From Thiohalomonadaceae bacterium (GTDB lineage Bacteria > Pseudomonadota > Gammaproteobacteria > Thiohalomonadales > Thiohalomonadaceae): 64,000 bases of DNA. The stretch is from NCBI GenBank assembly GCA_050302275.1, contig JBNLAT010000003.1, forward strand, positions 37,877 through 101,876. Direction: 5' to 3'. The stretch's first letter is position 1; each line of letters begins with the position of its first letter. Under the pieces are notes generated by a model, which saw nothing but the letters and a program-made list of their open reading frames with translations, had not been told where the DNA came from and did no database searches. Made by a program: the position numbers and the translations under genes. Shown piece by piece: positions 8,244 to 48,768 of the stretch.

Positions 8244-8265
8244 TCTTCATGGCAGTCGCATGAAA

Positions 8266-8293: not shown

Positions 8294-8326
8294 ATCTGCT
8301 GTGCAACATGCTTACTGACATCACTA

Positions 8327-8611: not shown

Positions 8612-8767
8612 TTTCCACCTTTCTCCGTGTCACGCTTGAGGAATCACTTTAGCACATCAGTCTCACAGGATAAGCACGAAGGACAGCGTCCATTGTGGAC
8701 TTCGCAAAGTAGCCTACCACGGGTCGTGCCACCCACATTCAAAATCAATCCGTCGCATAGCGACACA

Positions 8768-8793
8768 AACAAAAAGGCCCCGAAGGGCCTTTT
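8768..8793 (-). terminator. Rho-independent terminator after the DUF2892 gene
   Basis: Stem GGCCC/GGGCC (8776-8780/8785-8789), loop CGAA. A T-run follows on the minus strand. Confidence 0.6.
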
Positions 8794-8817
8794 CATCTAA
8801 TCACTTCAAATCAACAC

Positions 8818-9036
8818 TCAACTAAACGCCTGACCCGGCTTGGCGCCAACCGCCTTGAGGATCAGTGCCAACGGGCAGAAACCGGTGAACGCTGACTGGA
8901 ACAGGTTGATGCCGACGAAGGCAGTGAAGAAGAGCCAGTATTCGTGATGGAACAGCGGGCTGATGGACATACCCAGCGCCAGGCTCAGCATGATGAAAAA
9001 ACCGGCGACGGCGAAGACGATACGATCGATACTCAT
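8818..9036 (-). CDS. DUF2892 (YgaP-like transmembrane domain) protein
   Basis: 72 aa. [10 protein letters not shown]...L is typical of the DUF2892 N-terminus. Two TM helices and conserved FTGFCP. Confidence 0.7.
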
Positions 9037-9125
9037 GTTTATCCCTCTTAAGTCGATTTATTGAATGGTGCGATTATACGCAAACATATTAGTATTCGCT
9101 AATATTTGGTCTGGCGAAGACAATA

Positions 9126-14798: not shown

Positions 14799-14801
14799 GG
14801 T

Positions 14802-15845
14802 TCACCGGGAGCCGAGCTGATTGTCTTCCGCCCGTCCGACACGGAAACGGGCAATTTCTCCACGCTGGAAAGCGGAATGATCAAACAACGCGTTGTTGTA
14901 ATGGATCACGACTCCCTCAGCAAAACCGAGGAAGACCTTGAACGGCGCTTCGCCCTTAAGTTCAAGCGTTTGCCCAGCACGCATCAAGCCATAGACCAGA
15001 CGTCTGCCCGCATTGTCGTCCACCTCGGTCCAGCTATCCTGCTGGTATTCCAGCACCAGTTTCGAGCGTGGCATATCAGCGGTCAGTGGCGGCGGCGCAG
15101 GGATCGTCTCCTCTTCAACATTGGTGGTGGCCGAACTCTCATCGGCAACGACGCGGGGAGGCATCACGCTCGGCGGTGCCGCTGGATCCTGTTGAATTTG
15201 TTGCGCAGGCTTCGCTTCTATCGACACCGGCTCAGCAACCTTATCCGCTACCACGGCTTCCGCCTCTGGCGCTGCAGCTGCATCCGTATTGGCGGTGAGC
15301 GCATCGTCCTGTTTGACGTCCGCTGTCTCAAGCTGAGGTGCTTCTTCCTCGGTAACTGCCGCAGAGATTGCTGCCTGATTCGTCGCTTCCTGCGGCATCA
15401 TTGCCGTATCAGTAGCCGTCGTGCCTTTTTCGCGCTGACCGATCCACCACATACCCAGTGAGATGATCACGACGACGATGATCACATAGGTGACCATACG
15501 CACAGGCAGATCCATGCTGCTGGCCTGTTTGTCCTTACCAAAACTGGGCGCCAATGTTGGCGGTGTCTGCGTGGTGCTCACAGGACGAACAAAATCGGCC
15601 TCGGACAGCCCCAGCGCCTTGGCATAACTGCGCAGATAACCCGAGACAAAGGTTTCAGAGGGAAAGAGTTCGTAATTGTCCTCTTCCAGCGCCTGAATCT
15701 TGCGTTCAGAAAGTCGCAAGTGCAATGCGATCTCACCACGGGAAAGTCCCGCCGCTTCACGCGCCTTGCGTAGTCGCTCGCCTAGCGATTCCTGAGATAG
15801 AAACTGCGGCTGCTCGTTATGTTCTTCTGTTGTGTTGTCAGTCAT
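14802..15845 (-). CDS. rodZ: cytoskeleton protein RodZ-like (HTH + TM + periplasmic domain)
   Basis: N-terminal XRE-type HTH (LGERLRKAREAAGLSRGEIA), a single TM, and a low-complexity linker. I prefer the ATG at 15845 (MTDNTT) over the track start 15896, which overlaps pilW by 41 nt. Confidence 0.8.
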   Translation of the reverse strand: MTDNTTEEHNEQPQFLSQESLGERLRKAREAAGLSRGEIALHLRLSERKIQALEEDNYELFPSETFVSGYLRSYAKALGLSEADFVRPVSTTQTPPTLAPSFGKDKQASSMDLPVRMVTYVIIVVVIISLGMWWIGQREKGTTATDTAMMPQEATNQAAISAAVTEEEAPQLETADVKQDDALTANTDAAAAPEAEAVVADKVAEPVSIEAKPAQQIQQDPAAPPSVMPPRVVADESSATTNVEEETIPAPPPLTADMPRSKLVLEYQQDSWTEVDDNAGRRLVYGLMRAGQTLELKGEAPFKVFLGFAEGVVIHYNNALFDHSAFQRGEIARFRVGRAEDNQLGSR

Positions 15846-15855
15846 GGTTAGCCCG

Positions 15856-16614
15856 TTATCTGAGCGATTCCAGATAGAGTTTGGTTTCCGGCGCATCGGG
15901 GAAACGTCCTTTCAGGGCCAATCCATAGCTGGCGAGGGCATCCTTGTCACCGAGAACACGTTCCACCCGAATCCCAAGCCAGAGACTCTCTGGAGTATGC
16001 TTGCCTACGGACTGGTAACGTTGCAGGTAAGCACGAGCGGACATGTAATTCTTCTCCTCGAAGGAGACCTTGGCCAGTGCCAGCAGTGCACCGGGCAGAC
16101 GCGGATTAATCTGCACCGCCTGGCGCAGATACTCCTCTGCCTTTTTCAAGTCGGGTTTGCGCAACATGCACAGCCCCATATTTTCAAAAACCTGATCACG
16201 GCGAGGATAGACCGGGTTCTCCAGCACCTTGCGGAACTGGCGCTCCCCCTCACTAATGCGATCCTGACTGCAGAGGAAGGCGCCGTAGTTGTTGTACAGC
16301 AAAGAGTCTTCGGTTTCGCTGTAGCGCAGCGCATACTCGTAGTGATCTTCCGCATCGGCTGGACGCCCCAGACGACGATACAGTTCAGCAATGTAGTGAT
16401 GCGCCGGTGCGTAGGTGTCGTCATAGGCAAGGGCACGTTTGAGTTTTTTCATCGCCACTTCATTGTTGCCCTGGATCATGTAACGCAATCCCAGTTCAGC
16501 GTTAGCCTTTGCAGCTTTTTCTGTATCCACACCATCCGTTTTAACCGGGGAACTGCTGCACCCAGTCAGTACCAACATCCAAGCCATTACAACCCACAAA
16601 CCGAAACGTCTCAT
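15856..16614 (-). CDS. pilW: type IV pilus biogenesis/stability lipoprotein PilW (PilF-type TPR)
   Basis: 252 aa with lipobox LTGC and TPR repeats. Conserved rlmN-pilW-rodZ-ispG synteny. Confidence 0.8.
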
Positions 16615-17720
16615 GATGCAATCTTCTCCTCCACGATGGGGAACCGCCCACTACGACGGGTACGGTCCGCTACCTTACCGGCCAGTTGACCGCAGGCAGC
16701 ATCGATATCGTCACCGCGTGTCTTGCGGGTGACGGCGATAATTCCGGCTTCCATGACCACATCACGGAAGGCGTTAATCGTATCCAGTGAAGGACACTCA
16801 TAGGGCGAATCCGGGAACGGGTTAAAGGGAATCAGATTAACTTTGGCAGGTACACCACGCAGGATTTTCACCAGCTGTTTGGCGTCTGCCACACTATCGT
16901 TCACCCCGGCGAGCATCACGTACTCAAAGGTCACACGATGGTGAGGCTTGTCGGCCACATAACGTTTGCATGCGGCGAGTAATTCTTTGATCGGGTATTT
17001 CTTGTTCAGCGGTACCAGTTGATCGCGCAGCTCATCATTCGGTGCGTGCAGTGAAACGGCAAGGCTGATATCACTACGTTCACGCAGTTCGTCGATACCT
17101 GGCACCACACCGGCGGTGCTAAGGGTCACACGACGCTTGGAAATACCGAAGGCGAGATCGTCCTTCATCAAATCCATCGCCGGTACCACGTTATCCAGAT
17201 TCAGCAGCGGCTCACCCATGCCCATCAACACCACGTTGGTGATCACCCGCTCGCCCTTATTTTCCGGCAGACCGATGATACGCGTTGCCAGCGCCACCTG
17301 ACCGACGATTTCAGCGGTAGTCAGATTACGATTGAAACCCTGACGGGCGGTGGAACAGAAACTACAGGCCAGGGTACAGCCCACCTGCGAGGAGACACAA
17401 AGGGTGGCGCGGTCCTTGTCAGGGATGTAGACCATCTCGATATGATTAACTTCGTCGACCCGCAACAACCACTTGCGGGTACCGTCAGACGCAGGCATAT
17501 CCTTCACCACCTCGGGCAGGCGGATCTCAGCGATCGCTTTCAGCTTTTCACGCAGTGCCTTGCTCAGGTTGGTCATCTGTTCGAAGTCGTCGACCCCAAA
17601 CTGGTAGATCCATTTCATTACCTGAGAAGCGCGGAAGGCCTTCTCCCCCAAATTGGTGAAGAAGGCCTCCATATCCTGGCGTGTCAGGCCAAGCAGATTT
17701 GTCCTGACGGACTCACTCAT
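16611..17720 (-). CDS. rlmN: 23S rRNA/tRNA adenine-C2 methyltransferase (radical SAM)
   Basis: 369 aa with radical-SAM motif CTLACSFC. Typical RlmN N-terminus ([11 protein letters not shown]). Confidence 0.95.
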
Positions 17721-35416: not shown

Positions 35417-36271
35417 TTGTCACTTAAGCGGCTGCCATCCCTGATGGCTCTACTCCTCGCAGGCGCACTGACCACCGCCTGCTCCTCCATGCTCACTTCC
35501 GGACTGGGTGACAGCCTTTCCAGCGCTATCGCCAATCAGGATGATCCAGCGACTGTACGTGCCGGTGCGCCCTCTTTCATGCTGCTTATCGACGGCATGA
35601 TTAACAGCAATCCCGACGATACCGAACTGCTGGTGGCAGGTTCCCGCCTCAATAGCGCCTACGCCGCGGTATTTGTGACCGACCCGGAGCGGGCGAAAAA
35701 GATGGCCGACCGCGCCTATCGCTACGCGGAACATGCCCTGTGCCAGGATTACGAACGCATCTGCGCCCTGAACAAAGGCCCCTATCTGGATTTACTGCCA
35801 GCCATTAAAGAAATCGACGAAGACGATATCGCCACCCTCTACGCCTATGCCCTCGCCTGGGCGTTGCGTATCCAGACTCACAGCAGCGACTGGGGCGCTG
35901 TCGCCGACCTGCCCAAGGTCGAAGCGCTACTGGAACAGGTGATTGCCCTGAACAATCAATATGAACAGGGCGAACCCTGGCTCTATCTCGGGATCATCCG
36001 TAGCCAGGTGCCACCGGCCCTCGGCGGCAAGCCGGAAAAAGGCCGCGAGGCGTTCGAACAGGCCATCGCCCTCTCCGGCGGACGCAACCTGGCCGCCAAA
36101 GTGGCCTACGCACAAAACTATGCACGCCTGGTGTTCGACCGCGAACTGCATGACCGCCTGCTCAACGAAGTACTGGATGCCGAGGTAGAGGTACCCGGAT
36201 ATACCCTGAGCAACACCCTCGCCCAGCGTCAGGCGAAAGAATTGCTGCAATCGGCAGCAGATTATTTCTAG
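35417..36271 (+). CDS. TatT-family TPR lipoprotein (TRAP-transporter accessory)
   Basis: 284 aa. TTG start with AAGGAT SD (alternative ATG at 35444) and lipobox LTTAC. All-helical TPR-like body. Conserved position directly upstream of the DctP/Q/M genes, as in T. pallidum TatT. Confidence 0.7.
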   Translation: MSLKRLPSLMALLLAGALTTACSSMLTSGLGDSLSSAIANQDDPATVRAGAPSFMLLIDGMINSNPDDTELLVAGSRLNSAYAAVFVTDPERAKKMADRAYRYAEHALCQDYERICALNKGPYLDLLPAIKEIDEDDIATLYAYALAWALRIQTHSSDWGAVADLPKVEALLEQVIALNNQYEQGEPWLYLGIIRSQVPPALGGKPEKGREAFEQAIALSGGRNLAAKVAYAQNYARLVFDRELHDRLLNEVLDAEVEVPGYTLSNTLAQRQAKELLQSAADYF

Positions 36272-36279
36272 GAGAAACG

Positions 36280-37284
36280 ATGAAACGCCTCATTACCACC
36301 GTCCTGCTGCTCGCCGCTGTCGCCACCGCGCAGGCCACCACTTTCAAGATCGCCACGATTGCCCCTGACGGCACCAGCTGGATGAACGAGATGCGTGCGG
36401 GCGCGGCGGAGATCAAAAAGCTCACCGCTGGCCGGGTGGAATTCCGCTTCTATCCCGGCGGCATCATGGGCAATGACAACAGCGTACTGCGCAAGATCCG
36501 CGTCGGTCAGCTGCAGGGCGGCGCGATCACCGGCGGTGGCCTGGCCGACATCCTGCCCGAAGCGCAGGTCTACAGCCTGCCCTTCACCTTCCGCGACTAC
36601 GCCGAAGTCGATTACGTGCGTAAACAGATGGACCCGGTTTTGATGCAGGAACTGGAGAAAGAGGGTTACGTTGGTTTCGGCATCAGTGAGGGCGGCTTTG
36701 CCTATATGATGTCCGATACACCGGTCGCCGGCGTCTCGGCACTGAAGGGCCACAAAATCTGGGTACCCGAAGGCGACGTGATCAGTCGCACCGCATTTGA
36801 ATCCACCGGTGTTTCACCAATCCCGCTGCCGCTGACCGACGTCTTAACCGGCCTGCAAACCGGCCTGGTCGATACCGTAGCGGCAACACCCACCGGTGCC
36901 ATCGCCCTGCAGTGGCATACACGGGTGCACAACCTGACCGACATCCCGCTGATGTATATCTACGGCACCATGGTAGTGAAACGCAGTGCCTTCCAACGCC
37001 TCAGCAACGACGATCAAAAAATCGTACGTGAGGTGATGGGCGATATCTTCATCCGTCTCAACCGGCAGAATCGCGAAGACAATACCAGCGCACTAGCGGC
37101 ATTGAAGTCACAGGGCATCAGCTTCGTCGAGAGTAACGTGGTGGAACAACGCGAATGGCAGGGACTGGTCAACAACGCCATGGACAAACTGATCGCCAAC
37201 AAACTGTTCGACCCGGCGATTCACCAACGTCTGCTCGGCTACCGCGACACCTATCGTTCGCAGGCGATCAACGAGAAGCACTGA
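36280..37284 (+). CDS. TRAP transporter substrate-binding protein (DctP family)
   Basis: 334 aa with a signal peptide (ATAQA/TT). Starts FKIATIAPDGTSW, DctP-type fold. Confidence 0.88.
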   Translation: MKRLITTVLLLAAVATAQATTFKIATIAPDGTSWMNEMRAGAAEIKKLTAGRVEFRFYPGGIMGNDNSVLRKIRVGQLQGGAITGGGLADILPEAQVYSLPFTFRDYAEVDYVRKQMDPVLMQELEKEGYVGFGISEGGFAYMMSDTPVAGVSALKGHKIWVPEGDVISRTAFESTGVSPIPLPLTDVLTGLQTGLVDTVAATPTGAIALQWHTRVHNLTDIPLMYIYGTMVVKRSAFQRLSNDDQKIVREVMGDIFIRLNRQNREDNTSALAALKSQGISFVESNVVEQREWQGLVNNAMDKLIANKLFDPAIHQRLLGYRDTYRSQAINEKH

Positions 37285-37291
37285 CCGGCTA

Positions 37292-37768
37292 ATGCTTCTC
37301 CGCCTGCAGCACATCCTGCGCCGAGCCGAAGAGGGTTTTGTCCTTCTGCTGCTGAGCCTGATGGTACTGCTGGCAGGCAGCCAGATCGTACTGCGCAACC
37401 TCTTCGAAAGCGGCATCGCCTGGGGTGATCCGCTCCTGCGCGTGTTGGTGCTGTGGCTCGGTATGCTCGGCGCGATGCTCGCCAGCCGCAGCAATCAACA
37501 TATTCGCATCGACATTCTCTCCCGCTACCTGCCCTCAAGCTGGAAGCGTTACAACAATGCCCTGACCAATCTGTTCAGTACCGTGATCGCCTGTCTGCTC
37601 GCCTGGCACAGCGGACGCTTCGTCTACTTTGAATGGCAGGATGGAATGGAATTATTTGCCGGGCTTCCCGCCTGGCTAGCGGAAAGCATTCTGCCGGTTG
37701 GTTTTACCGTCATCGCCATACGCTTTGCCATTCTGAGCGTACAGTCGCTAATGGGTAATAAAGCGTGA
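37292..37768 (+). CDS. TRAP transporter small permease (DctQ)
   Basis: 158 aa with four TM segments. Lies between the dctP-like and dctM-like genes. Confidence 0.85.
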   Translation: MLLRLQHILRRAEEGFVLLLLSLMVLLAGSQIVLRNLFESGIAWGDPLLRVLVLWLGMLGAMLASRSNQHIRIDILSRYLPSSWKRYNNALTNLFSTVIACLLAWHSGRFVYFEWQDGMELFAGLPAWLAESILPVGFTVIAIRFAILSVQSLMGNKA

Positions 37769-39045
37769 GTGTGCTGCTGACACTGCTACTGATCCTGCTG
37801 GCGCTACTCGGTGCGCCGCTGTTTGTGATCATTGCCGCCAGCGCCATGCTCGGTTTCTACACCACCGATGTCGACCTTTCCGTCGTGGCGATCGAGTTTT
37901 ACCGCCTCGCCGAAATGCCGATCCTGCTGGCGATCCCACTATTCACCTTTGCTGGCTACCTGCTCAGCGAAAGCCGTGCACCTACCCGTCTGGTTAACCT
38001 AACCCAGGCTCTACTCGGCTGGATGCCCGGCGGACTGGCGATCGTCGCGCTGAGTGCCTGTGCTCTGTTCACTGCCTTCACCGGTGCATCGGGCGTCACC
38101 ATCGTCGCCCTCGGCGCCCTGCTCTATCCGGCAATGAGTAAAGCTGGCTATAGCGACAACTTCAGTCTGGGACTCATCACCACCTCGGGCAGCCTCGGCC
38201 TGCTATTCGCACCGTCGCTGCCGTTGATCCTCTACGGCATCATCGTGCAACAGCTGGGCGTTGGTGCCAGCCTGACCATCGACGAACTGTTTCTCGCCGG
38301 TCTGCTTCCTGGCCTGCTGATGCTGGTGGTGTTATCGGGCTGGAGTATGTGGACCAATCGCGGACGCGACCTACACGCCTGTTGCTGGAGCGATATCGGT
38401 GTTGCCCTACGCGAAGCGGCGTGGGAGTTACCACTACCTTTAATCATTCTTGGCGGGATCTACAGCGGTTATTTTGCCGTCTCGGAAGCAGCGGCGGTAA
38501 CTGTGATCTATGTCTTTATCGTAGAGGTGCTGATTCATCGAGAGATACCGTGGCGACGACTGCCGCGGGTAGTGCGCGAAGCGATGATTATGGTCGGCGC
38601 GGTACTGGTGATACTCGGTGTCTCGCTAGCATCGACCAATTATCTGATCGACGCACAGATCCCCACCAAGCTGTTTGAATTTATCCGCAGCAACATTTCG
38701 GACAAACTGACCTTCCTGATCCTGCTGAATATCTTCCTGTTAATCCTCGGCACCATGCTCGATATTTTCTCAGCGCTGGTGATTATGGTGCCGCTGTTAC
38801 TACCTATCGCTGTCGGTTATGGTATCGACCCGATCCACCTCGGGATCATCTTCCTCGCCAACATGCAGATCGGTTACTTCACACCGCCGGTCGGGATGAA
38901 CCTGTTTATCGCCAGTTTCCGCTTTAACCGGCCGGTAACCCAGCTCTATCGCTCAACCCTGCCATTCTTCTTCCTGCTGCTGCTCACCGTGCTTATCATC
39001 ACCTACTGGCCGCAGCTCTCTCTGTGGCTGCCGGGCAGAATGTAA
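37765..39045 (+). CDS. TRAP transporter large permease (DctM)
   Basis: 426 aa, polytopic. Overlaps the dctQ stop (GTGA). Confidence 0.9.
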   Translation: MSVLLTLLLILLALLGAPLFVIIAASAMLGFYTTDVDLSVVAIEFYRLAEMPILLAIPLFTFAGYLLSESRAPTRLVNLTQALLGWMPGGLAIVALSACALFTAFTGASGVTIVALGALLYPAMSKAGYSDNFSLGLITTSGSLGLLFAPSLPLILYGIIVQQLGVGASLTIDELFLAGLLPGLLMLVVLSGWSMWTNRGRDLHACCWSDIGVALREAAWELPLPLIILGGIYSGYFAVSEAAAVTVIYVFIVEVLIHREIPWRRLPRVVREAMIMVGAVLVILGVSLASTNYLIDAQIPTKLFEFIRSNISDKLTFLILLNIFLLILGTMLDIFSALVIMVPLLLPIAVGYGIDPIHLGIIFLANMQIGYFTPPVGMNLFIASFRFNRPVTQLYRSTLPFFFLLLLTVLIITYWPQLSLWLPGRM

Positions 39046-39052
39046 GTCTTAC

Positions 39053-40573
39053 TTAGCGAGCAAATACCGCCGTACCAGCAACAAGACCGTCACTCACATC
39101 CAGAATGAAACCACTAATGGCTCCTTCAGCCTGTGAACCGACAAAACGTCCACTGATCGAACCAGTGACGGGAATAGTCGCAACAGTACCATTCAGAGTA
39201 ATACCGTTACCGTAAAACGCAGAGATATTCTGGTTAGCTGCGGTATAGGATGCAGGTGTACCAAAAACATCGGTGACTAACGTCACATCCATCTGTGCCG
39301 TACCAAAATCAACCGTCAAATTGCTCCCTGCCAGCAATTGCTGACCTGAGCCACCAACATAATCATATTGATACGAACCGATTGTTGGTAAATCCGCAGT
39401 ACTAACAACTACGTTAGTAGCATTGATATAGTTAACGAAATCAGTACTACCAATCGGAATAGTAGTATTAGTTTGATCCGTTAATTGAATCTGCAATCCA
39501 CCAAACTGTCCCCAGTTAATCGTACTATTACCCGCTGTTGCACTACCTGTATTCTGTGGAACAGGCGGAGCAGCAACCACTACAGTGCCATAGCTACTAA
39601 TCCCACCAGACCCTCCTGTAGCATTCTGCAGATCTCCATAAGTGGCGCCAACAGTCACTGGATTACTGAAAAAGTCACCTTGATAGGGATTGATTCCATT
39701 TCCCGTCGAAATTACATTTGAAATGCCATAAGGTCCTGGTGAAACCGTTGCTTCACTGGTACCACTCGACATCAAAATTTGTGCAGCTGATACGTCAGCC
39801 ATAAACGAATAAATACTATTGCTATCCCGCTGGCTGACCGCCGTCCTTGAATAGCTATCGCTTCCATCTGCAGTCTTCGGTCGATCCTGCTCTTCAAATG
39901 CCGCGAACTCGACAAAGATCGCTTCCAGGTCAGGACGCAGTTCAGGCGGCGCATCGACAAACGGAACATAGCCGATTTCACCCGGACCGAGCAGCAGTTC
40001 GCCCGTCGGCGTTGAAAGCAGCACCTGTCCCTCCAGCACCATCACATAGGTACCCGGTGCCATACCAGGAAGCTCAGGCAAGCCTTCAGGCGGAATAACA
40101 ATGGTGTCGAACACGGTGCCACGAATACCGATGGTAGCCACCGGGGTACGGTATTTCACCGCTTCCGGTTTTTCGTGGCCGATAGCACCAGTAATCGCAC
40201 GCAGGCCGCCGCGCAACAGTTCGCCAACCTGACTCCCTTCACCCGGCGCCTTTTCATTGTAATCCTGGGCTTCGATGCGATAGACCGTGCCAGCCTTGAG
40301 CGCGATCATTGCGCCGTCACTCATACGCAGTTGTGCGCTACTGGCTACGCCAGTACGAATGGTGTCGCCAACCTGCAACACATCACCACGCTTTGCCGCA
40401 CGGGACTCTGCTTCGACGCTGGTGATCTGCACTTCCCCACGGGCGAATAACAGGCGTCCCGCAGAATCCGCCGCATGAACGTTGAGGCTGAAAAACAGGG
40501 CCAGCATCAGCAGGCCAAGTTGCAGTAAAAAAGTTGTCTGGTATGTAGCCCTGGCTGTGATATTCCGTGACAT
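39053..40573 (-). CDS. exported FecR-domain protein with a low-complexity linker and a TbpB/fHbp-like C-terminal beta-barrel signature
   Basis: 506 aa. Signal peptide cleaved near VHA/AD, with no lipobox Cys. FecR-domain pattern (GEVQIT...GDVLQVGDTIRTG..SSAQLRMSDGAMIALKAGT...IRGT). C-terminus LTVDFGTAQMDVTL...GSISGRFVGSQAEGAISGF...AGTAVFAR matches the L.VDF....G.L ... G.F.G..A.E..G.F......G.F.A.R pattern of TbpB-type barrels. The GGAGG SD overlaps the upstream gene's stop. Confidence 0.85.
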   Translation of the reverse strand: MSRNITARATYQTTFLLQLGLLMLALFFSLNVHAADSAGRLLFARGEVQITSVEAESRAAKRGDVLQVGDTIRTGVASSAQLRMSDGAMIALKAGTVYRIEAQDYNEKAPGEGSQVGELLRGGLRAITGAIGHEKPEAVKYRTPVATIGIRGTVFDTIVIPPEGLPELPGMAPGTYVMVLEGQVLLSTPTGELLLGPGEIGYVPFVDAPPELRPDLEAIFVEFAAFEEQDRPKTADGSDSYSRTAVSQRDSNSIYSFMADVSAAQILMSSGTSEATVSPGPYGISNVISTGNGINPYQGDFFSNPVTVGATYGDLQNATGGSGGISSYGTVVVAAPPVPQNTGSATAGNSTINWGQFGGLQIQLTDQTNTTIPIGSTDFVNYINATNVVVSTADLPTIGSYQYDYVGGSGQQLLAGSNLTVDFGTAQMDVTLVTDVFGTPASYTAANQNISAFYGNGITLNGTVATIPVTGSISGRFVGSQAEGAISGFILDVSDGLVAGTAVFAR

Positions 40574-40583
40574 CTCAGTCCTC

Positions 40584-41933
40584 CTAGAAATACCGCAGTG
40601 CGGTCAGTTGTGCCGTCCAGCGATCGTTCTCATAGAACCGCACGGTCGATGTCTGTTTTCGATAATCAAGATCCGCTTCCAGTTGCCAGTTACGGGCAAT
40701 GCTGCGACGCCATTGCAGATTGATATCCACCGCGTCATCGATGCGATCTCGTGTTGTGGTACCCGGATTGTAGAGTGGATGCGGCGCATAGCTGTCAGCG
40801 TAGTCGGTACGACTGAGATTCAATGCGGTTGAAAGCTGATGCCCACCGGCGAGAACGAAATCGAATCGGCCACCCAGGACATAACGCAGCGCATCACCGC
40901 CGTTGCGATCATTACTCGCACTCTCCTGTTCGAGATCGAGTGTCAGCGCACCACGCATTTGCGGGTTCCAGGTTTTATTCAGCTCGCCACTCAGGGCGGT
41001 CATGTTGTAATCGTAAGTATCGGGGTCAAAACGATAGCTGTGCAGCTTGAGTCCCAACCGTCCCTGCATGCCTGCGTCGAGACGACGTTCCCAGAAAGCG
41101 CTAGCGCCGATGTGATCGCGGAAGCTGCTGTTATCCAGCCACAGTTTGTTGGCCTGCAGCCCGAGATCGTAGCTATTGCTTGCATCCAGTTTGCTCTTCA
41201 GCAACACACCGGCATGTAGCAATCCCAGATTGAACTGGGTTGCATCACTATCCTGATAGTTACGAATCTGGGCGTGGAAGGTTGTCTGTAGCTGTCTGTC
41301 ATCACTCAGCTTGTAGGGTTGCCACCAGGTACCGCGCAACAGGCTGAAAGCGCTTTCCATAGGCGAAACAGTGAGTAGCAGCCCGCCAAGGTCCAGGCCC
41401 ATATCGGGATAACTGCCGACATTGCTGTCGTAGCCGACACTCAATCCCAGCAAACGCACGGGACGTGGAGTACCGGAGAGTCGGGGCCGAAGAATGTCCT
41501 GAAAACGCGCCATGCTCTCTTGCGCCGCAGGTGGCGGATTTTGGGTCTTGAGAATATCGAGCTGTTCCTGGGCCTGCTGGTCCATACCGAGTTGCACATA
41601 GGCACCGACCAGTTCCATCCGCGCCGCGGCATAGTTAGGCTGTGTCTGTACAACACGTTCCAGTGCAAATACTGCCTGGGCTGGCTTGCCTGCACGCATG
41701 GCGGCGATGCCCAGCAGATAATCGAATTCAGGATCGCCCGCCTCATCCATCGAGGCTTTTTCCAGCAGTTCATAGGCCTGCTGGTATTTCTCCGCTGCAA
41801 GTAATTTTTTTGCCTGTGACTGGGCAGCACTTTCAGCCTGCACCTGGAGAGGTAGGACGAAGCTTAGTAAGAACAGTGCGGAGATGATACCGCGACAGAC
41901 AGACAAGAAAGGTGTCGATGATGAGATAGTCAT
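40584..41933 (-). CDS. TPR + C-terminal beta-barrel outer-membrane protein, Slam/DUF560 (type XI secretion)-like
   Basis: Start chosen at MTISSST (GAGGGAA SD); the track ORF starts at 41984. Signal peptide (VQA/ES), about 100 aa of TPR, then alternating beta-strands from GYDSNV to the C-terminal ...TAQLTALRYF. Its size (~450 aa) and architecture match Slam/NilB-type proteins. The family call itself is uncertain (about 0.55). Confidence 0.8.
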   Translation of the reverse strand: MTISSSTPFLSVCRGIISALFLLSFVLPLQVQAESAAQSQAKKLLAAEKYQQAYELLEKASMDEAGDPEFDYLLGIAAMRAGKPAQAVFALERVVQTQPNYAAARMELVGAYVQLGMDQQAQEQLDILKTQNPPPAAQESMARFQDILRPRLSGTPRPVRLLGLSVGYDSNVGSYPDMGLDLGGLLLTVSPMESAFSLLRGTWWQPYKLSDDRQLQTTFHAQIRNYQDSDATQFNLGLLHAGVLLKSKLDASNSYDLGLQANKLWLDNSSFRDHIGASAFWERRLDAGMQGRLGLKLHSYRFDPDTYDYNMTALSGELNKTWNPQMRGALTLDLEQESASNDRNGGDALRYVLGGRFDFVLAGGHQLSTALNLSRTDYADSYAPHPLYNPGTTTRDRIDDAVDINLQWRRSIARNWQLEADLDYRKQTSTVRFYENDRWTAQLTALRYF

Positions 41934-42045
41934 CGGTGTTCCCTCATTTTTCCCCAACCCTGCGCTGCTTACCTGGAGCAGCACTATATAACTGCTATTC
42001 TAAGGTTCCCGTTTGTGTGATGTCCATCACAATGATGAGGGAATG

Positions 42046-44271
42046 CTATTTCTCGCTGCGAACGTAGACACCATGCCATTCTTCTCCCAGAGACTGCTCA
42101 CGTAACTCTGCAATTCGCTGGCGGAAAAGGCTATATAACACCAATTCTGGCTGGCGTTCCTGCAGTGTCGCAAACAGTTCATCGGCCTCATCCCAGCGAC
42201 GACCGCGGTATGCCGCCTGCGCCTGATCGAGCAGTTCGATCTCCTGTAATAGCGCGGCACCGCCCTTGTTGCGATGACAAACGGGCTGATAGATATGCAC
42301 CGCCTGGGCTTTACCCTTCACCTGAATCAGATCCAGATCTCGGTAGAGGAAAACATCCCCGGCCAGTTCGCGAGTACGCTCACCGATCACCAGCCCAACA
42401 CCATAATATTTGGTGGTGGCTTCCAGGCGTGACCCCAGATTGACCGAGTCGCCCAACACGGTATAGCTACGGCGATACTCGGACCCCATGTCACCGACGC
42501 TCATCATGCCGCTATTGATACCAATGCCGATATTGGCGGGTGGCCAGCCAAGGGCGGCAAACTCGTGCTTGAGCTGCTCTACTTCGATCTGCATCTGTAA
42601 TGCCGCCTCAATCGCGTGCACCGCATGTTGCGAATCGTCTACTGGGGCGCCCCAAAAGGCCATCACCATATCGCCGACGTATTTATCGATCGTGCCCTGA
42701 TGATTAAAGATGATGCGGGTCATCGGGGTGAAGAAGCGGTTGAGATAACGCTTCAACTCATCCGCCTGGAGCGATTCCGAAATAGTGGTAAAACTACGAA
42801 TATCAGAAAAGAGAACGGTCAATTCCCGCGCCCGTCCCTCGGTATCATATTCATCGGGACGCTCGCTCATCTCCTCAACCAATTGCGAAGGCACGTACTG
42901 GCCGAAGATACCTTTCAAACGCAACTTGGTTAGTGATTCGAAGAAGAAACCCCAGGCGAGATTACCCATGACCAACAACGTTATTAACAGCAATGGCCCG
43001 GCAAGATTGAGTACCAGGCCCTGACTACTCCAGAACCATTCGGTTACGCCGATTACCATCGCCGCGCTGAGCGTGCTCAAGGCCAGCAGTCCGGCGATCG
43101 GCACGCGAGGTAGCGCAAAGATCAACAACAAACCCGGAAACAGGCTCAATAGTAGATTGGCGCCACGGGACCAGGATGGCACTACCAGATAGCGGTTATC
43201 GAGCATCGACGAAATCAGATTGGCGTGAACCTCTACCCCTGGATAACTCGGGGCAATCGGCGTAGCGCGTAGATCAAACAGACCTGCCGCCGTGGTACCG
43301 ATCAAAACGATGGTGCCAGCCAATTGCTCGGGGGAAGCCTCATCACGTAAAACCGTGGCCGCGGAGACATAGGGAAAACTGCCTTGCGGTCCACGATAAG
43401 GAATCAACATATTCCCGATCCCATCAAGCGGAACCGACAACGCCTCACCAAAACGGAGAAACTCGATATTCTCGTTATCACGTATGGGTTTACTTACCAA
43501 CGTCGCCTCTTGCAGAAACATAAAGCGACGAACAGCTGCCAGCGCCAGAGAGGGATAGATTTGATCCTGATAACGATTGATCAATGGTACCCGGCGCACC
43601 ACCCCATCGATATCGGGGAACAGACTGAAGAAACCACCGCTACTTGTCGCCTGCTGCAACACGGGTACCGAACCGGTATAACCAGCCATCGGTTTGAGTT
43701 TGAGCAGTCTAACAATTTCTGGATTCGTTAATGGCAGAGGATTAGGAAGCTGACCGGCTGTCTCTTTGCGCGAGGGATCGAACACAAAACCTAACACCAC
43801 CTCACTATCGCGTAACGCCTCTGCCAGCACAGCATCAGCATCAAGCATCGGTGCTAACGTAGACAGCTCCTGTTTAACACCCGCGAACTGTTGCTCGCCG
43901 GGAAGACGCTGAACCAGTTCACGCGCAGGATTTCGCTCGGGTTCCGCTAACAACATATCCAGCGCGATCACCACCGCACCGGCTTCGTGTAATTTGGTGA
44001 TCAGTTCACCGATGGTGCGACGACTCCAGGGCCAGCGGCCGATCTGGTGCAGGGAGGTTTCGTCGATATCAACGATGACGATGCGCGGATCGACTTCGAC
44101 CTTTTCAGGCACATGGGCCTGCATCCGCTGGTTGTAGACAAACAACTCGAGACGCTGGAACAGCTCCTCCATCCCCGGAATGGAACCGTATTCCAGTGCC
44201 AGCACAAACAGCGTTAGCACTACGCCAAGACCTGTGGCCATGCGTCTGGATTGTTTGTGACTTAATGCCAT
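42046..44271 (-). CDS. CHASE2 sensor domain-containing class III adenylate/guanylate cyclase
   Basis: 741 aa. N-terminal TM; CHASE2 signature (IVIVDIDETSL...GRWPWSRR...VIALDMLLAEP); three TM helices; cyclase homology domain (LTVLFSDIRSFTTISE...GDMVMAFWGAP...GSRLE); TPR-like tail. Confidence 0.92.
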   Translation of the reverse strand: MALSHKQSRRMATGLGVVLTLFVLALEYGSIPGMEELFQRLELFVYNQRMQAHVPEKVEVDPRIVIVDIDETSLHQIGRWPWSRRTIGELITKLHEAGAVVIALDMLLAEPERNPARELVQRLPGEQQFAGVKQELSTLAPMLDADAVLAEALRDSEVVLGFVFDPSRKETAGQLPNPLPLTNPEIVRLLKLKPMAGYTGSVPVLQQATSSGGFFSLFPDIDGVVRRVPLINRYQDQIYPSLALAAVRRFMFLQEATLVSKPIRDNENIEFLRFGEALSVPLDGIGNMLIPYRGPQGSFPYVSAATVLRDEASPEQLAGTIVLIGTTAAGLFDLRATPIAPSYPGVEVHANLISSMLDNRYLVVPSWSRGANLLLSLFPGLLLIFALPRVPIAGLLALSTLSAAMVIGVTEWFWSSQGLVLNLAGPLLLITLLVMGNLAWGFFFESLTKLRLKGIFGQYVPSQLVEEMSERPDEYDTEGRARELTVLFSDIRSFTTISESLQADELKRYLNRFFTPMTRIIFNHQGTIDKYVGDMVMAFWGAPVDDSQHAVHAIEAALQMQIEVEQLKHEFAALGWPPANIGIGINSGMMSVGDMGSEYRRSYTVLGDSVNLGSRLEATTKYYGVGLVIGERTRELAGDVFLYRDLDLIQVKGKAQAVHIYQPVCHRNKGGAALLQEIELLDQAQAAYRGRRWDEADELFATLQERQPELVLYSLFRQRIAELREQSLGEEWHGVYVRSEK

Positions 44272-44326: not shown

Positions 44327-45808
44327 TTAGCCAATGCTGGCGTTGCTGCGGGAATATTTGCTGGCCAACTGACGTAGCCGGGAGGTTAATTCCGGTGTGA
44401 CTGCGTTCCAGTCGAAACGCCAGCGCCAGTTGCCCTGTGGCACACCGGGAACATTCATACGATCTTCGCTGCCGAGAGATAGAATATCCTGCATAGGAAT
44501 AATCGCCTGACGCGCCACTGAAGCATAGGCCGTTTCGATCAACGGCCAGGGCATTGGCTCACTGGGAAAACCGAGAGACTCCATCACCTTGTGCTGCTGC
44601 CAGTCGGCCAGCGAATTAAACCAGCCGACAGTGGTATCGTTATCATGCGTACCAGTGTAGACCACGCTATCTACCGTGTGATGATGTGGCAGGTAAGGAT
44701 TGTCTTCCTGTCCATCGAAGGCGAACTGCAGGATCAACATACCGGGGAAATAGAATTTACGCCTTAGTGCGGTGACTTCGGGAGTAATAATACCCAGATC
44801 TTCCGCGAGGATCGGTAACTCACCGAAGTGATTCAGCAGCGAAGTAAACAGCGCTTCGCCGGGCACCTTGATCCAGCGACCATTAATCGCCGTTTCCTCG
44901 TGAACAGGGATCTCCCACGACGCCTCAAAACCGCGAAAGTGGTCGACGCGGAACATGTCGAACAGCTCCAGATGTTGCGCCACCCGTTTTTTCCACCAGC
45001 CGAAATCATCGGCTTCCATCCACTCCCAATCGTAGTAAGGATTTCCCCAGCGCTGACCGGTTTCGGAAAAATAGTCGGGGGGCACACCGGTGACGACGGT
45101 CGGCTTACCCTGATCATCAAGCAGAAAAGCACAACGCTGTGCCCAGACATCGGCACTGTCATAGGCAACAAAAATCGGCATGTCGCCGAGGATCGCAATG
45201 CCAGATGCGTTGGCATAGTCACGAATACGGTGCCACTGCCGATAGAAGAAGAACTGCATAAAACGATGCAGATCAACTTGCTCGCCTTCTGTGCGACGCA
45301 CTGCGGCCAATGCCTCGGTATGTCGATCACGAAATTCGACCGGCCACTCATCCCAACGCTGATCGTCAAAACGCTGCTTTAGTACCCGGAACATGGCGTA
45401 ATCATCGAGCCAATGTCCCTGCTGTGCACAGAATGCCCTGAACTGTTCGGAAAAACGCCCCGCAGTGCGGTAGAGATGATAGTGCAGTGTCACCAGTTCC
45501 ATGCGCGACATATGGTGATGCCGCTCATCGTGCATCTCCTGCGGCAGTTCTTCCATTAACCACTGACGTCCCACCAGTTCGGGATTACCGGCAAAAGCGG
45601 ATAGCGCCTGATAGGGAGAAAGATCCTCGTGCACCGGACCGAGCGGTAACATCTGCCAGATACGTTGTCCGGCATCGGCAAGAAAATCGACAAAGCGCAG
45701 GGCCTCGTCACCCAGTTCGCCAAAATCGCCATCGCCGGGGAGAGAGGTTGGATGTAACAAAACCCCGGCGCCACGTTGCGCCAGGGTGAAAACGTTCTTA
45801 TCAGCCAT
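44327..45808 (-). CDS. malQ: 4-alpha-glucanotransferase (GH77)
   Basis: GAGVLLHPTSLPG N-terminal motif and GH77 blocks. Start placed at MADKN (ATGGCTGA overlap with the GH57 stop). The track ORF starts at 45832. Confidence 0.92.
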   Translation of the reverse strand: MADKNVFTLAQRGAGVLLHPTSLPGDGDFGELGDEALRFVDFLADAGQRIWQMLPLGPVHEDLSPYQALSAFAGNPELVGRQWLMEELPQEMHDERHHHMSRMELVTLHYHLYRTAGRFSEQFRAFCAQQGHWLDDYAMFRVLKQRFDDQRWDEWPVEFRDRHTEALAAVRRTEGEQVDLHRFMQFFFYRQWHRIRDYANASGIAILGDMPIFVAYDSADVWAQRCAFLLDDQGKPTVVTGVPPDYFSETGQRWGNPYYDWEWMEADDFGWWKKRVAQHLELFDMFRVDHFRGFEASWEIPVHEETAINGRWIKVPGEALFTSLLNHFGELPILAEDLGIITPEVTALRRKFYFPGMLILQFAFDGQEDNPYLPHHHTVDSVVYTGTHDNDTTVGWFNSLADWQQHKVMESLGFPSEPMPWPLIETAYASVARQAIIPMQDILSLGSEDRMNVPGVPQGNWRWRFDWNAVTPELTSRLRQLASKYSRSNASIG

Positions 45809-47510
45809 GCTGCTCATGCAGTTCCTGTCCACGACGCATCACACCGCCGGCCTCGGCTTCACCACCACCGAGGGAGATCACCTTTTGCAATGAGGCAGGG
45901 GACGTTTCACCCAGACATTGATACAACGCGTGGAGTTGATGTCGATAAAGCTTGTCGAACTCCTGTACCGAGTCGGCAGGGTTATAGTCACCAAACCACC
46001 AGAACCAGTCTGAAGCTTCGCAAATACCCAGTTGCCGTTCAGCAAGCAGGCGCTGTTCCTCACTTAAGCTCCCTTCCGCCATCACCCGGTCATAAACCTG
46101 CTTGGCTTCCATTAGCAGTTCCCAACCACGATTCTTGTCCTTACTGCCAATCCAGGTGGAGAAGGTACCGTAGACCCAGCTGCCCGCTACCAGATGTGGC
46201 AAATGCTGAGGCTGCACGCCCTGTTGCAGACAATCGCTGAAGGTGGTCAGTTCAATCTCGGGGGATTCGCTCAAGCGGGCATAGAGCGTAGTCAGAAAGT
46301 GATAGCCATTTTCCGGGTAGTACTCCCAGGCGTTCTCGCCATCCATGATGATCGACACCACACGGTTAGGATCATCGGCACAGGCCGTGGCGATATTTTG
46401 CAGGTGATGAATCAAATTATTCACCGCGTCGCGGCTATGCCAGTCGGCGAAGGTGAAGCCGATCAGATCGGAGAGGCCATCGTCGCGGAAGAAACAGGTG
46501 ATCGGCGCGCCGTCAAAACTGAAAGGATGGTGTATACAACCCTCTGCTGACACGCCACTCTGCTTCAAACTGTTGCGCATCACCGACTCGCCACTGGCGG
46601 TCCAGTGAAAACCTGACTCGGCCAACAATTTGAGTGTCTCGTTGCTCAGCGCACCCTCGGATGGCCAGCAACCCTTTGGCCGAAAGCCGAAGTGATTTTC
46701 AAACACCCGCAAGCCTTCTTCGATATGCCAATGCACCCGCTCCTCACCACCGGGATAGGATGCATTTGTTGGCAAAGGCGCATCGGGCATCGCCTGATGG
46801 GTAGTATTCATATCCAGCAATAGCGGCATGATCGGATGACCATAGGGAGTCAGCGTGAGTTCGACTCGCCCCTCCTGCGCCAGATAACGGTAACGCTCCA
46901 GTGTCTCACCCAGCAGTTCACCGATAATCGCCAGCAGCTCATGGCGATCTTTTTCGTTGTAGTCACGCTGCTTCTGCAATAGCGCTTTAACTCGTGATTC
47001 GTGCAGTCGCACGGTTTCACCCAACCAGGCAAGGTGATACCAGACCAACAGATCGATCAGGAACTGCTCACTGCAATAGCGCACCGATTCAGGTTGCTTC
47101 AGCAGTTGATTAGCAAGATTGGCAAGGTGGTGAAAAGCGCTAAAGCGATTGATCATCCGTTTAGCATTGGCCCGCAGGCAACGTTTGATCAATTCCAGTT
47201 TGTGCGCCTCTTCGATGCTGGAGAGATCGCCAACTAACGCCGCCAACAGGGCATCGCGCAAAGGCGTACCCTGCTGACGATATGCGCTGATCTGATCGGC
47301 GTAGTCGTCGATTTGCTCCAGCAGAGTGGGTGAAAAATTGACCACCGCCCGCGCCGCCGGATTGGCCTCCAGCAGTGCGGCCATGTCGACGTAATCTTTA
47401 ATACCGTGGAGATAGGTCCAGGGTTGCTGATACTCGCCGCTGATCGCATCGCGGTAATCGGGCTGGTGCATATGCCACAGCAGGACAACCTTCAATCGGT
47501 TAGCGGACAC
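45801..47510 (-). CDS. glycoside hydrolase family 57 protein (alpha-glucan active)
   Basis: 569 aa with N-terminal [13 protein letters not shown], typical of GH57. Overlaps the glgC stop by 11 nt. Confidence 0.85.
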
Positions 47511-48768
47511 GGTGCAGATCCTGACCCAACATTTCGGGAGTCACGAGCACCACGCCATTTGCGGTCACATGAAAACGTTTTTCGTCGGCCTCACGATCAA
47601 CGCCGATTTCTGTCCCATCTTCGATCAGACACTGTTCATCGATAATCGCTTTTCGAATGCGACAGTTTTTACCGATGGTCACGTTGGGCAGAACCACCGA
47701 ATCCTTGATCGAGCTGTAGGCATGCACCTCGACATTGGAAAACAGCAATGAGTGACGAACCAGCGCGCCAGAGATAATACAGCCCCCGGAAACCATCGAA
47801 TCCACGGCCATGCCGCGACGATCATCGTCGTCAAAAACGAACTTGGCCGGCGGCAGTTGCTCCTGATAGGTCCAGATAGGCCAGTCACGATTGTAGAGAT
47901 TCAGTTCCGGGGTAACACCGATCAACTCCATATTGGCCGTCCAGTAGGCGTCCACGGTCCCCACATCGCGCCAGTAGCGTTTGCTACCCGTTTTGGGATC
48001 GCGGAAGGGATAGGCATAGACCCGACTTTCCCTGATCGCCTGGGGAATGATGTCCTTACCGAAATCGTGGGCTGAATCGCTCTGTGCGGCATCGCTGATC
48101 AGCGCATCGTAAAGAAACTCGGTATTAAAGATGTAGATCCCCATCGAGGCAAGTGAGGTTTCAGGGTTGCCCGGAATCGTCGAGGGCTCGGCCGGTTTTT
48201 CGGCAAAATCGGTCACCCGTAGCTGGTCATCCACCTGCATCACCCCGAAGGAACGGGCTTCATCCACCGGAACCTCGAAGCAGCCGATGGTCATGTCCGC
48301 TTCGGTTTCCGCGTGGGCGGCCAACATCGGACCATAGTCCATCTGGTAGATATGATCCCCGGCAAGGATCAGTACATATTCCGGACGATGGGTATGGATA
48401 ATATCCATATTCTGGTAGAGCGCATCAGCGGTTCCCGCATACCACTGCTCCCCGACCCGCTGCTGCGCAGGCAACAATTCGATGAACTCACCCAGTTCAC
48501 CACGCAGGAAACTCCAGCCCAGTTGCACATGGCGAATCAGCGAGTGGGCCTTATACTGGGTCAGGATACCGATGCGGCGAATACCTGAGTTGATACAGTT
48601 AGAGAGAGGGAAATCGACAATGCGGAATTTGCCGCCAAATGGGACAGCGGGTTTGGAACGCCATGAGGTCAGTCCCATCAATCGAGTCCCCGCCCCTCCG
48701 GCGAGAATGAGCGCAAGCGTCTCTCTTGTCAGACGGCTGACAAAACGCGGTGTGTTCGTCTGTGGCAT
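47500..48768 (-). CDS. glgC: glucose-1-phosphate adenylyltransferase
   Basis: 422 aa with [21 protein letters not shown] and a C-terminal LbH domain. Confidence 0.96.

Follow-up and report, generated by a model that had tools for sequence, protein, structure and literature searches.

A divergent Slam-like outer-membrane protein and its probable FecR-domain cargo, encoded beside a CHASE2 cyclase, as a candidate link between the cell surface and cAMP

How might a nucleotide cyclase of the inner membrane be informed of events at the cell surface? The question is raised by three co-directional genes in a 64,000-nt stretch of DNA from a Thiohalomonadaceae bacterium (GCA_050302275.1, contig JBNLAT010000003.1, positions 37,877–101,876); the whole of this stretch is called the window here, and coordinates are relative to it. 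The genes, all on the minus strand together with the sites and domains described for them below, encode a CHASE2-class III nucleotide cyclase (42046–44271, 741 aa, identified by open reading frame (ORF) and Pfam), an outer-membrane protein (OMP) that is Slam-like and of the DUF560/type XI secretion system (T11SS) type (40584–41933, 449 aa with its corrected start) and a FecR-domain protein of the T11SS-cargo type (39053–40573, 506 aa, with a Sec-type signal peptide). All three were found in the ORF list just where the initial annotation had put them. As detailed below, we consider it likely that the OMP and the FecR-domain protein are a T11SS secretor–cargo pair, and we lean towards a functional coupling of this pair to the cyclase, as its recurrent gene neighbourhoods suggest.

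The OMP and FecR genes are closely joined. The OMP stop codon, the 10-nt spacer and the AGGAGG Shine-Dalgarno sequence of the FecR gene occupy 40574–40586, and the junction reads TTC TAG GAGGACTGAG ATG. Thus, 10 nt separate stop and start, and AGGAGG overlaps the stop codon, as the initial annotation had described; such a junction has the appearance of translational coupling. The OMP ORF as listed spans 40584–41984 and begins with a GTG at 41984 that has no ribosome-binding site. We reassigned the start to the ATG at 41933, because GAGGGA precedes it and because the resulting 449 aa fit the 449–451 aa of the homologues. The corrected protein carries a signal peptide ending in LQVQA, with ES following, and it terminates in LRYF as had been claimed.

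Does the OMP belong to the Slam family? Its AlphaFold2 model (mean predicted local distance difference test (pLDDT) 92.4) consists of helices at residues 37–154 followed by 14 long strands over 160–449, the number that had been predicted. The helices, with pLDDT >90, make up a periplasmic TPR region (41475–41828, approximately residues 36–153; Pfam TPR_19, 6e-14) and the strands a beta-barrel (40590–41459, approximately residues 159–448), which together give the architecture of T11SS OMPs. A homologue search with full-length phmmer returned a close family at 47–92% identity, and more distant relatives (E 1e-36 to 1e-21, coverage of at most 94%) that carry PF04575, some of them named by NCBI as ‘surface lipoprotein assembly modifier’. 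Indeed, SlipAM is found in 45 of the 68 aligned family members (E ≤ 0.01, best 6e-16). Since TPR repeats could drive full-length scores, the barrels were also compared on their own. Pairwise BLAST of the window's barrel with a named Slam homologue gave a weak match (E 5e-5 over 47 residues), which was resolved by hhalign: the barrels of the window's clade and of the PF04575-positive relatives align at 99.5%, with an E of 2.5e-22 over 275 of 295 columns. We therefore assign the OMP to the DUF560/Slam superfamily, as a divergent member lying below Pfam's own threshold, rather than to another barrel family such as the YaiO type.

The candidate cargo displays the features of a T11SS substrate. By inspection, residues 1–34 form a Sec-type signal peptide, as T11SS cargo have, with a charged n-region, a hydrophobic stretch at 12–35 and a cleavage site between NVHA and AD. 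The window's protein has no lipobox and therefore looks like a non-lipidated cargo, as hemophilin is; among 76 relatives, lipobox-like matches occur in nine, all inside ordinary-looking signal peptides. In the AlphaFold2 model (pLDDT 85.1), the N-terminal FecR domain discussed below is followed by a disordered linker (39758–39898, residues 226–272, pLDDT <50), a beta-rich ‘handle’ subdomain (39419–39730, residues 282–385, pLDDT ~90–97) and a C-terminal barrel of the TbpB/LbpB/hemophilin type (39059–39376, residues 400–505) with 8 strands and pLDDT ~96. The handle is specific to the window's clade, and its hidden Markov model (HMM), HANDLE, recruits only 8 close relatives. The barrel, by analogy with characterised cargo, is presumed to be the export signal.

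That the barrel is TbpB-like is supported by several comparisons. Foldseek of the C-terminal half against the PDB returned TbpB at 1e-6, fHbp and hemophilin, and so a handle and an 8-stranded barrel stand at the C-terminus where the initial annotation had expected them. The barrel domain alone has HphA_C (E 0.008) as its sole family match. A C-terminal-domain profile of the close clade matches hemophilin (0.0045), TbpB and GNA2132, and a profile made from 43 varied barrels of the survey described below (alignment A5) matches LbpB at 5.1e-8 and TbpB at 1.3e-7 in the PDB, the top 23 matches all being T11SS-cargo barrels. Furthermore, the NCBIfam model NF041636 slam_lipo (‘Slam-dependent surface lipoprotein’) is found in 18 of 55 family members, with a best match of 2.1e-11, and in several homologues Pfam FecR and TbpB_B_D occur in one protein. 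Cargos of ~1,280–1,315 aa in five other loci (L021, L032, L039, L045 and L072) keep the FecR head and the barrel tail, with ~900 extra residues in the middle that have no Pfam match.

How general the pairing is was surveyed from the OMP side. At least 565 species-representative genomes encode a relative, and the best 80 loci were analysed with HMMs derived, in iterative rounds, from the domains of the window's own proteins; for the OMP family as a whole, 2,196 cluster representatives were counted at E ≤ 1e-30. A same-strand FecR ORF lies within 400 nt of the OMP gene in 75 of the 80 loci (73 downstream, 2 upstream), four of the five others end at contig boundaries, and the C-terminal barrel is present in 62 of the 75 adjacent ORFs. 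The window junction is thus one instance of a widespread pairing of such an OMP gene with a gene for a TbpB-like-barrel cargo, in agreement with the tight linkage that had been proposed for the two. Because of this adjacency, the OMP–FecR pair can be regarded, from its sequences, as the conserved core module of a large, uncharacterised, mainly environmental T11SS subfamily. Most host genomes are from Burkholderiales, Gallionella, Sideroxyarcus, Sulfuricella and unclassified Gammaproteobacteria, and the nearest relatives of the window's genes come from Thiohalomonadaceae metagenome-assembled genomes. The T11SS reading of the two genes, with the FecR proteins as a divergent new cargo class, is in our view well supported.

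Variations on the pair were also noted. Tandem arrays occur: L046 has the OMP–FecR pair three times over, and in L084 and L088 a single OMP gene is surrounded by three FecR-barrel genes. A gene for a TPR + Glyco_transf_41 protein (GT41, OGT/HMW1C family) is present in 19 of the 80 OMP–FecR loci, directly downstream of the FecR gene in 12 (examples are L019, L022, L025, L026, L043, L051, L052, L058, L061, L074, L079 and L088), and is absent from the window. GT41 is thereby a commoner accessory than the CHASE2 cyclase, which suggests that some cargos may be glycosylated. The window's handle and barrel contain 7 N-x-S/T sequons where 3.4 are expected (p ~0.03); this enrichment was examined for a link to GT41 and set aside as too weak to use. 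In L009 and L010 (5417–15467), a different FecR-domain protein of 488 aa is flanked by a POTRA_2/ShlB TpsB transporter on one side and a giant TPS-domain exoprotein on the other. Its C-terminus has a Cys-containing motif and not a TbpB-like barrel, and FecR-fold proteins therefore seem to pair with two-partner secretion as well.

What sets this cargo apart is its N-terminal domain (39959–40465, residues 37–205), for which Pfam gives FecR at 1e-8 over residues 70–158, in agreement with the initial annotation. Against the PDB, Foldseek places it with the anti-sigma factor BDI_1681 (2.5e-5) and the PupR CCSSD (4.8e-5). The best PDB match of the family profile is 5ix9 (E 1.9e-7), the N-terminal domain, or plug, of the Marinomonas ice-binding RTX adhesin MpIBP; phmmer of the single window protein against PDB sequences also gives a weak match to 5ix9, whereas phmmer of the OMP gives TPR matches only. 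In addition, NCBIfam NF033682 retention_LapA is found in all 55 aligned family members, with a best match of 1.7e-16. In the adhesins, this module stalls secretion: the protein stays threaded through an outer-membrane pore, its module remaining on the periplasmic side, and 5ix9 served as the template for the LapA model (bioRxiv 10.1101/198937). The homology of the FecR domain to the periplasmic retention module of the LapA/MpIBP adhesins, indicated by these profile matches, is new here. Weak matches were also given by the NCBIfam-named Leptospira models Lsa33, a surface adhesin (53 of 55 members), and LipL45, a lipoprotein (49 of 55).

Within the domain lies a motif T-I-G-I-R-G-T, with G149, R151 and G152 kept in 55 of 55 sequences and T153 in 54 of 55 (alignment A2). 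The conserved G152-T153 dipeptide (40114–40119) could be a self-cleavage site, a lead that comes from comparison with E. coli FecR: the family HMM gave no significant alignment with that protein, and the best local alignment by hhalign, itself not significant at E 0.46, puts G152-T153 over the G181-T182 self-cleavage motif. Neither of the two familiar settings of such a domain is found at this locus. The N-terminus is a 34-residue signal peptide only, with no cytoplasmic anti-sigma domain or transmembrane (TM) segment in the protein and no extracytoplasmic function (ECF) sigma factor or TonB-dependent transducer nearby, so that it is not a FecR-type anti-sigma factor. The C-terminus is TbpB-like in place of a type I secretion system (T1SS) signal or RTX repeats, and no ABC-MFP-TolC or LapG/LapD genes flank it, which sets it apart from LapA-like RTX proteins.

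The third gene is a CHASE2 receptor cyclase, as had been claimed. Its Pfam matches are CHASE2 (3.9e-63) and Guanylate_cyc (7.7e-20); the sensor domain (PF05226, 213.9 bits) lies at 43132–44205 (residues 23–380) and the class III catalytic domain (PF00211) at 42304–42831 (residues 481–656). Judging from the hydrophobic segments, TM1 at ~11–33 is followed by a periplasmic CHASE2 region at ~34–368, three TM segments at ~369–445 and then the cytoplasmic cyclase domain, the arrangement of CHASE2 receptor class III cyclases with catalytic residues in place. The catalytic motifs are FSDIR, DKYVGD and LGDSVNLGSRLE, which we take to represent the metal-binding Asp pair, the Lys/Asp pair that specifies adenine in the substrate, and the Asn and Arg of an adenylate-type enzyme. 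Based on these motifs, cAMP rather than cGMP is the expected product. In the Roseateles cyclases discussed below (L034 and L059), Arg replaces the substrate-defining Lys (LDRIVGD).

Is the cyclase more than a neighbour? In close relatives, the order cyclase > OMP > FecR is kept between glycogen genes and a TRAP transporter, so the arrangement is conserved in related genomes, and L003 has the triplet with different upstream genes. Of the 80 loci in the OMP-centred survey, 10 have a CHASE2 cyclase no more than 10 kb away, and six of these belong to the window's clade. The other four show OMP > FecR > GAF-HD_5 > cyclase in Roseateles (L034 and L059), OMP > FecR > Big_9/cadherin protein > cyclase (L050), and a convergent cyclase and OMP–FecR pair (L068). 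In the reverse direction, 80 metagenome loci around CHASE2 cyclases of this type were examined; the OMP–FecR pair is directly adjacent in six of them, in three gene orders, and in ~8 further loci FecR ORFs of another kind are close by, among them FecR-only proteins of 228–234 aa immediately beside the cyclase (L146 and L158). Taking both surveys, the orders include cyclase > OMP > FecR, OMP > FecR > cyclase and the convergent form, with or without a GAF-HD_5 or Big_9 gene between. A neighbour-joining tree of the OMP barrels has cyclase-linked OMPs at no fewer than five separate positions, and on the window's own divergent branch 11 of 12 are cyclase-linked, the exception (L017) having no upstream sequence. 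The link between pair and cyclase, as initially claimed, is thus non-random, and this recurrent, polyphyletic and order-independent co-localization speaks for a functional coupling in those loci that have the cyclase. On these sequences, the cyclase appears to be an accessory, optional partner of the pair, and its presence to be the rule in the window's branch.

The surveys turned up further arrangements of CHASE2 genes. The GAF + HD_5 (HD-GYP-type phosphohydrolase) gene of L034 and L059 lies at about 13020–17100, between the FecR gene and the cyclase. In L146 (777–4932), a FecR-only protein of 234 aa, a CHASE2 cyclase and an OMP of 361 aa with an autotransporter beta-domain stand in a row. 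In L005 (Leeia sp., 564–9726), a bona fide SlipAM OMP, a FecR-barrel protein and GT41 lie ~4 kb from a divergent CHASE2-PAS histidine kinase and response regulator; a CHASE2 partner can thus be something other than a cyclase. In ~24 of the 80 cyclase-centred loci (L097, L103, L109, L119, L121, L128, L149 and others), a second CHASE2 protein of ~850 aa, fused to a Ser/Thr protein kinase, is encoded ~1.7 kb upstream, with genes for a PP2C phosphatase and FHA-domain proteins between the two CHASE2 genes and a class-II-phosphodiesterase-like metallo-beta-lactamase gene downstream.

How might the three proteins act together? What we infer is a route of export and a final topology and, beyond these, a contact between the FecR and CHASE2 domains that would carry a signal inwards to cAMP. 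Thus, the FecR protein would be exported by Sec, whereupon the cognate TPR + 14-stranded OMP would recognize the cargo barrel and handle and pass them to the cell surface. The N-terminal FecR domain would most likely fold and stay in the periplasm, at least for a time, leaving the disordered linker (residues 226–272) in or near the lumen of the OMP. In the window's lineage, the inner-membrane CHASE2 adenylate cyclase would then read the state of the periplasmic FecR domain, be it presence, tension, release or cleavage, and the surface or secretion status of the cell would thereby be converted into cAMP. As a whole, a T11SS pair with a periplasmic FecR end read by the CHASE2 cyclase is our best explanation of the locus, which we hold with moderate confidence.

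The final topology deserves separate comment. The initial annotation had the FecR domain exposed at the surface, or released, and then acting on CHASE2. This is topologically awkward, and the FecR domain is, by family profile, homologous to a periplasmic retention module; because of that homology we favour a periplasmic over a surface FecR domain, and the sequences suggest that the FecR end is probably retained in the periplasm. A conserved N-terminal domain, a disordered linker and a C-terminal export signal would fit a stalled, tethered topology with the FecR end facing CHASE2. By analogy with the adhesins such a topology is conceivable for this cargo, although we regard stalling itself as a tentative proposal, more likely wrong than right.

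Several observations weigh against the explanation that we prefer. The window's OMP scores only 13.3 bits (E 0.059, aligned over model positions 55–288 of 288) on SlipAM/DUF560 (PF04575), below the cutoff of 22; of the TPR + DUF560 identity first assigned to it, the TPR part, the 14 strands and the PF04575 homology stand by structure and profile, and the direct Pfam match does not. Similarly, no Pfam match to TbpB_B_D (PF01298) was obtained for the window's FecR protein, and the TbpB/fHbp/hemophilin-type barrel that had been claimed is upheld by structure and profiles, not by the predicted Pfam hit. On retention_LapA, the window's protein reaches 23.3 bits against a cutoff of 50, and the retention module has been described for T1SS and not for T11SS. 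Foldseek of the OMP model against the PDB, which holds no Slam structure, returned BcsC (8e-12), PelBC, CymA, FadL and OmpG, matches that are in keeping with a 14-stranded barrel without identifying a family. As for the cyclase, 70 of the 80 OMP–FecR pairs lack a CHASE2 gene at a distance of up to 10 kb, and 74 of the 80 cyclases lack the pair, so that neither partner needs the other and the three genes are not the conserved unit that had been proposed. Within the window, 112 nt separate the cyclase stop from the OMP start, and the gap contains a promoter-like site (TGGACA-18-TAGAAT, 10/12 match, 41997–42026). The region is poorer in such sites than shuffled sequence, for which reason this one is a lead only; nevertheless, the gap and the site mean that co-transcription of cyclase and OMP is not assured. 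Lastly, characterized T11SS cargo such as TbpB and hemophilin ends fully outside the cell, exposed or released and not stalled (PMC8406197, PMC12282271).

This last point bears on the alternative that survives best, one that we hold unlikely but would take seriously: the two genes are an ordinary T11SS pair, the whole FecR protein is displayed or released as hemophilin is, FecR serves as an extracellular binding or adhesin domain, and the cyclase is no more than co-regulated with them or responds to another signal. Apart from the fate of the known cargo, the lack of a lipobox in a hemophilin-like manner, the weak Lsa33 and LipL45 matches to FecR-domain proteins of Leptospira, and the highly variable cargo middle (up to ~1,300 aa in relatives, as in surface passengers) are all in its favor, as is the fact that the commonest accessory gene encodes a TPR-GT41 glycosyltransferase and not a sensor. 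However, the FecR domain is kept in every cargo of the subfamily, whereas effector domains of T11SS normally vary; it is, by family profile, homologous to a module known to stay in the periplasm, and a periplasmic location is shared by the FecR domains in anti-sigma factors and by the FecR-only proteins that partner CHASE2. Moreover, ordinary secretion leaves the recurrent CHASE2 linkage in many gene orders unexplained.

At the other extreme, the FecR-barrel protein might be a sensor tether spanning the outer membrane, in which export stalls on the folded FecR domain and this domain is the direct ligand of CHASE2, making FecR-fold partners a general input of CHASE2 and opening a new cell-surface route to cAMP. 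Taken in full, this is a speculative extension, slightly less probable than ordinary secretion. If it were true, a surface handle and barrel would be linked, via the linker inside the Slam-like barrel, to the periplasmic FecR domain, FecR-fold proteins would be the long-sought input of CHASE2 cyclases, histidine kinases and Ser/Thr kinases, and self-cleavage at G152-T153 might release the signal.

Signalling could also be imagined without export, the Slam-like OMP being a surface receptor like NsrA, and the FecR protein a periplasmic adaptor that sits on the OMP, via its barrel or the TPR region, and relays to CHASE2 in the manner of FecA-FecR. There is precedent for each half of the idea, since NsrA is needed upstream of the Sinorhizobium meliloti CHASE2 cyclases (PMC7529298, PMC13001267) and FecR domains bind the periplasmic domains of outer-membrane transducers in the Fec, Fox and Pup systems (PMC8144685), the last consistent with the Foldseek match to the PupR CCSSD. 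Other OMP types also occur beside FecR genes, namely ShlB in L009 and L010 and the autotransporter-type barrel in L146. We nonetheless give this alternative little weight: the cargo barrel is homologous to the export-signal domain of T11SS and the OMP to the secretins of that same system, and NsrA is much larger (~1,200 aa) and apparently unrelated.

Slightly less probable still is that the cyclase is an unrelated neighbour and its adjacency in the window inherited synteny without functional meaning. The shared glycogen and TRAP flanks of the closest relatives do indicate that local gene order has been inherited vertically, and the many pairs that lack a nearby CHASE2 gene and the promoter-like site between cyclase and pair point the same way. 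Against this, the combination recurs in unrelated lineages, with other flanks and orders, at those separate places in the OMP tree and from either starting point of the survey; L003 keeps the triplet behind different upstream genes; and adjacency of FecR and CHASE2 genes has been documented independently (PMC5192318, PMC9239204). Finally, a reading of the OMP as a BcsC/PgaA/PelB-type porin for exopolysaccharide export, and not as a protein secretin, can be rejected as very improbable, in spite of BcsC and PelBC leading the Foldseek matches, a common TPR + barrel layout and the frequent GT41 neighbour in other lineages, because the OMP has 14 strands and not 16 (a distinction drawn in PMC8406197) and sequence homology to PF04575 proteins, no polysaccharide synthase genes are found in the window locus or its syntenic relatives, and the invariant neighbour encodes a T11SS-cargo-barrel protein.

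Returning to the preferred explanation, a T11SS pair whose periplasmic FecR end is read by CHASE2, we would compare it with what is known. The closest system is T11SS itself (Slam1/Slam2, NilB, HrpB and the hemophilin secretors, with TbpB, LbpB, fHbp, HpuA, NilC and hemophilin as cargo). Shared features are a TPR + 14-stranded DUF560-type OMP, an adjacent cargo gene, and a cargo with a Sec signal, a handle and a C-terminal 8-stranded TbpB-like barrel, non-lipidated as in hemophilin. The differences are that the window's OMP clade is too divergent for the Pfam SlipAM threshold, that the cargo N-terminus is a conserved FecR/retention fold and not a variable nutrient- or host-binding domain, that the host bacteria are Beta- and Gammaproteobacteria of the environment (here Thiohalomonadaceae), whose loci show neither a TonB-dependent receptor nor a setting of metal uptake, and that the subfamily, known here from sequence alone, is linked to CHASE2 cyclases or GT41 glycosyltransferases. 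In published surveys, the DUF560 similarity network has 10 clusters, of which the T11SS papers analysed only clusters 1 and 3; the other clusters are reported to have no characterized members and to be associated with water and soil. FecR does appear in the supplement of the 2025 survey, in a co-occurrence list with sigma-70 region domains and TonB_C, which we read as classical FecI/FecR regulators rather than cargo. In the searchable literature, we found no paper that treats DUF560 and FecR together.

Gene clusters with a CHASE2 protein beside a FecR protein have been reported at least twice. In Campylobacterota, a 2022 report noted a CHASE2 adenylate cyclase clustered with FecR-domain and TPR-domain proteins, sometimes with a cAMP phosphodiesterase (PMC9239204), to which the GAF-HD_5 gene of the Roseateles loci and the class-II phosphodiesterase-like gene of other cyclase loci correspond here. 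Compared by its description, that paper notes the clustering only and takes neither the TPR protein for a Slam-like one nor the FecR protein for T11SS cargo; a T11SS reading of the CHASE2–FecR–TPR cluster was not found in the searchable literature. In Burkholderia, LysM-FecR proteins are encoded next to CHASE2 histidine kinases (PMC5192318). This BiofilmReg operon (PA4035/PA4036 type) resembles the present locus in having a secreted FecR-domain protein beside a CHASE2 sensor. Its output, however, is a histidine kinase and response regulator, its FecR protein carries LysM, and it has neither a T11SS barrel nor a Slam-like OMP.

Three further systems offer functional parallels. First, LapA/MpIBP with LapE, LapG and LapD has a homologous N-terminal beta domain followed by a flexible stretch, which lies in an outer-membrane pore while the module stays in the periplasm for inner-membrane signalling proteins, and a nucleotide second messenger would be common to both. 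LapA is exported by a T1SS/TolC-like route, as opposed to Sec and a Slam-like barrel here, where there are no RTX repeats, LapG or LapD; and its signalling is inside-out from c-di-GMP, whereas here it would presumably be outside-in to cAMP. Second, FecA-FecR-FecI, with FoxR and PupR, likewise relays outer-membrane events inward through a periplasmic FecR fold, to which the Foldseek matches correspond, and the conserved G-T dipeptide falls where FecR and FoxR are self-cleaved, as judged from the non-significant alignment with E. coli FecR. Unlike these, the window's protein comes with no anti-sigma domain, TM anchor, ECF sigma factor or TonB-dependent transducer, and its output would be a cyclase. 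Third, in the NsrA-CyaD1/CyaD2/CyaK system of S. meliloti an outer-membrane beta-barrel is genetically required for perception by CHASE2 adenylate cyclases. NsrA (barrel at 600–1200) is not evidently related and is a functional analogue only; it has not been described with a partner of the FecR-barrel kind, nor is its gene reported to lie beside those of the cyclases.

The surroundings of the three genes (35417–39045 and 44327–48768) are housekeeping genes, syntenic in relatives. One flank, convergent with the FecR gene, encodes the TRAP transporter TAtT/DctP/DctQ/DctM and the other the glycogen genes GH77 MalQ, GH57 and GlgC; no CRP-like cAMP receptor or phosphodiesterase adjoins the locus among the window's flanking genes. 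The GC content falls to 0.475–0.49 at 38500–40000, the 3' half of the FecR gene, compared with 0.54–0.61 in the flanks. This dip may be simply compositional, as this part of the protein looks rich in Ser, Thr, Asn and Gly by eye.

T11SS has been studied almost solely in host-associated bacteria with nutrient-capture cargo. The present locus gives a large environmental DUF560 subfamily, spread over the species-level genomes counted above, a defined and near-obligate cargo class, whose N-terminal domain is related both to FecR signalling domains and to the retention plugs of adhesins. T11SS could thus build proteins tethered in the outer membrane, and not only release or display them. In addition, the repeated genomic coupling of CHASE2 to proteins of the FecR fold, whether or not the Slam module is there, provides a concrete candidate for the input of CHASE2. 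Together, these point to a possible route by which events at the cell surface may come to control cAMP.

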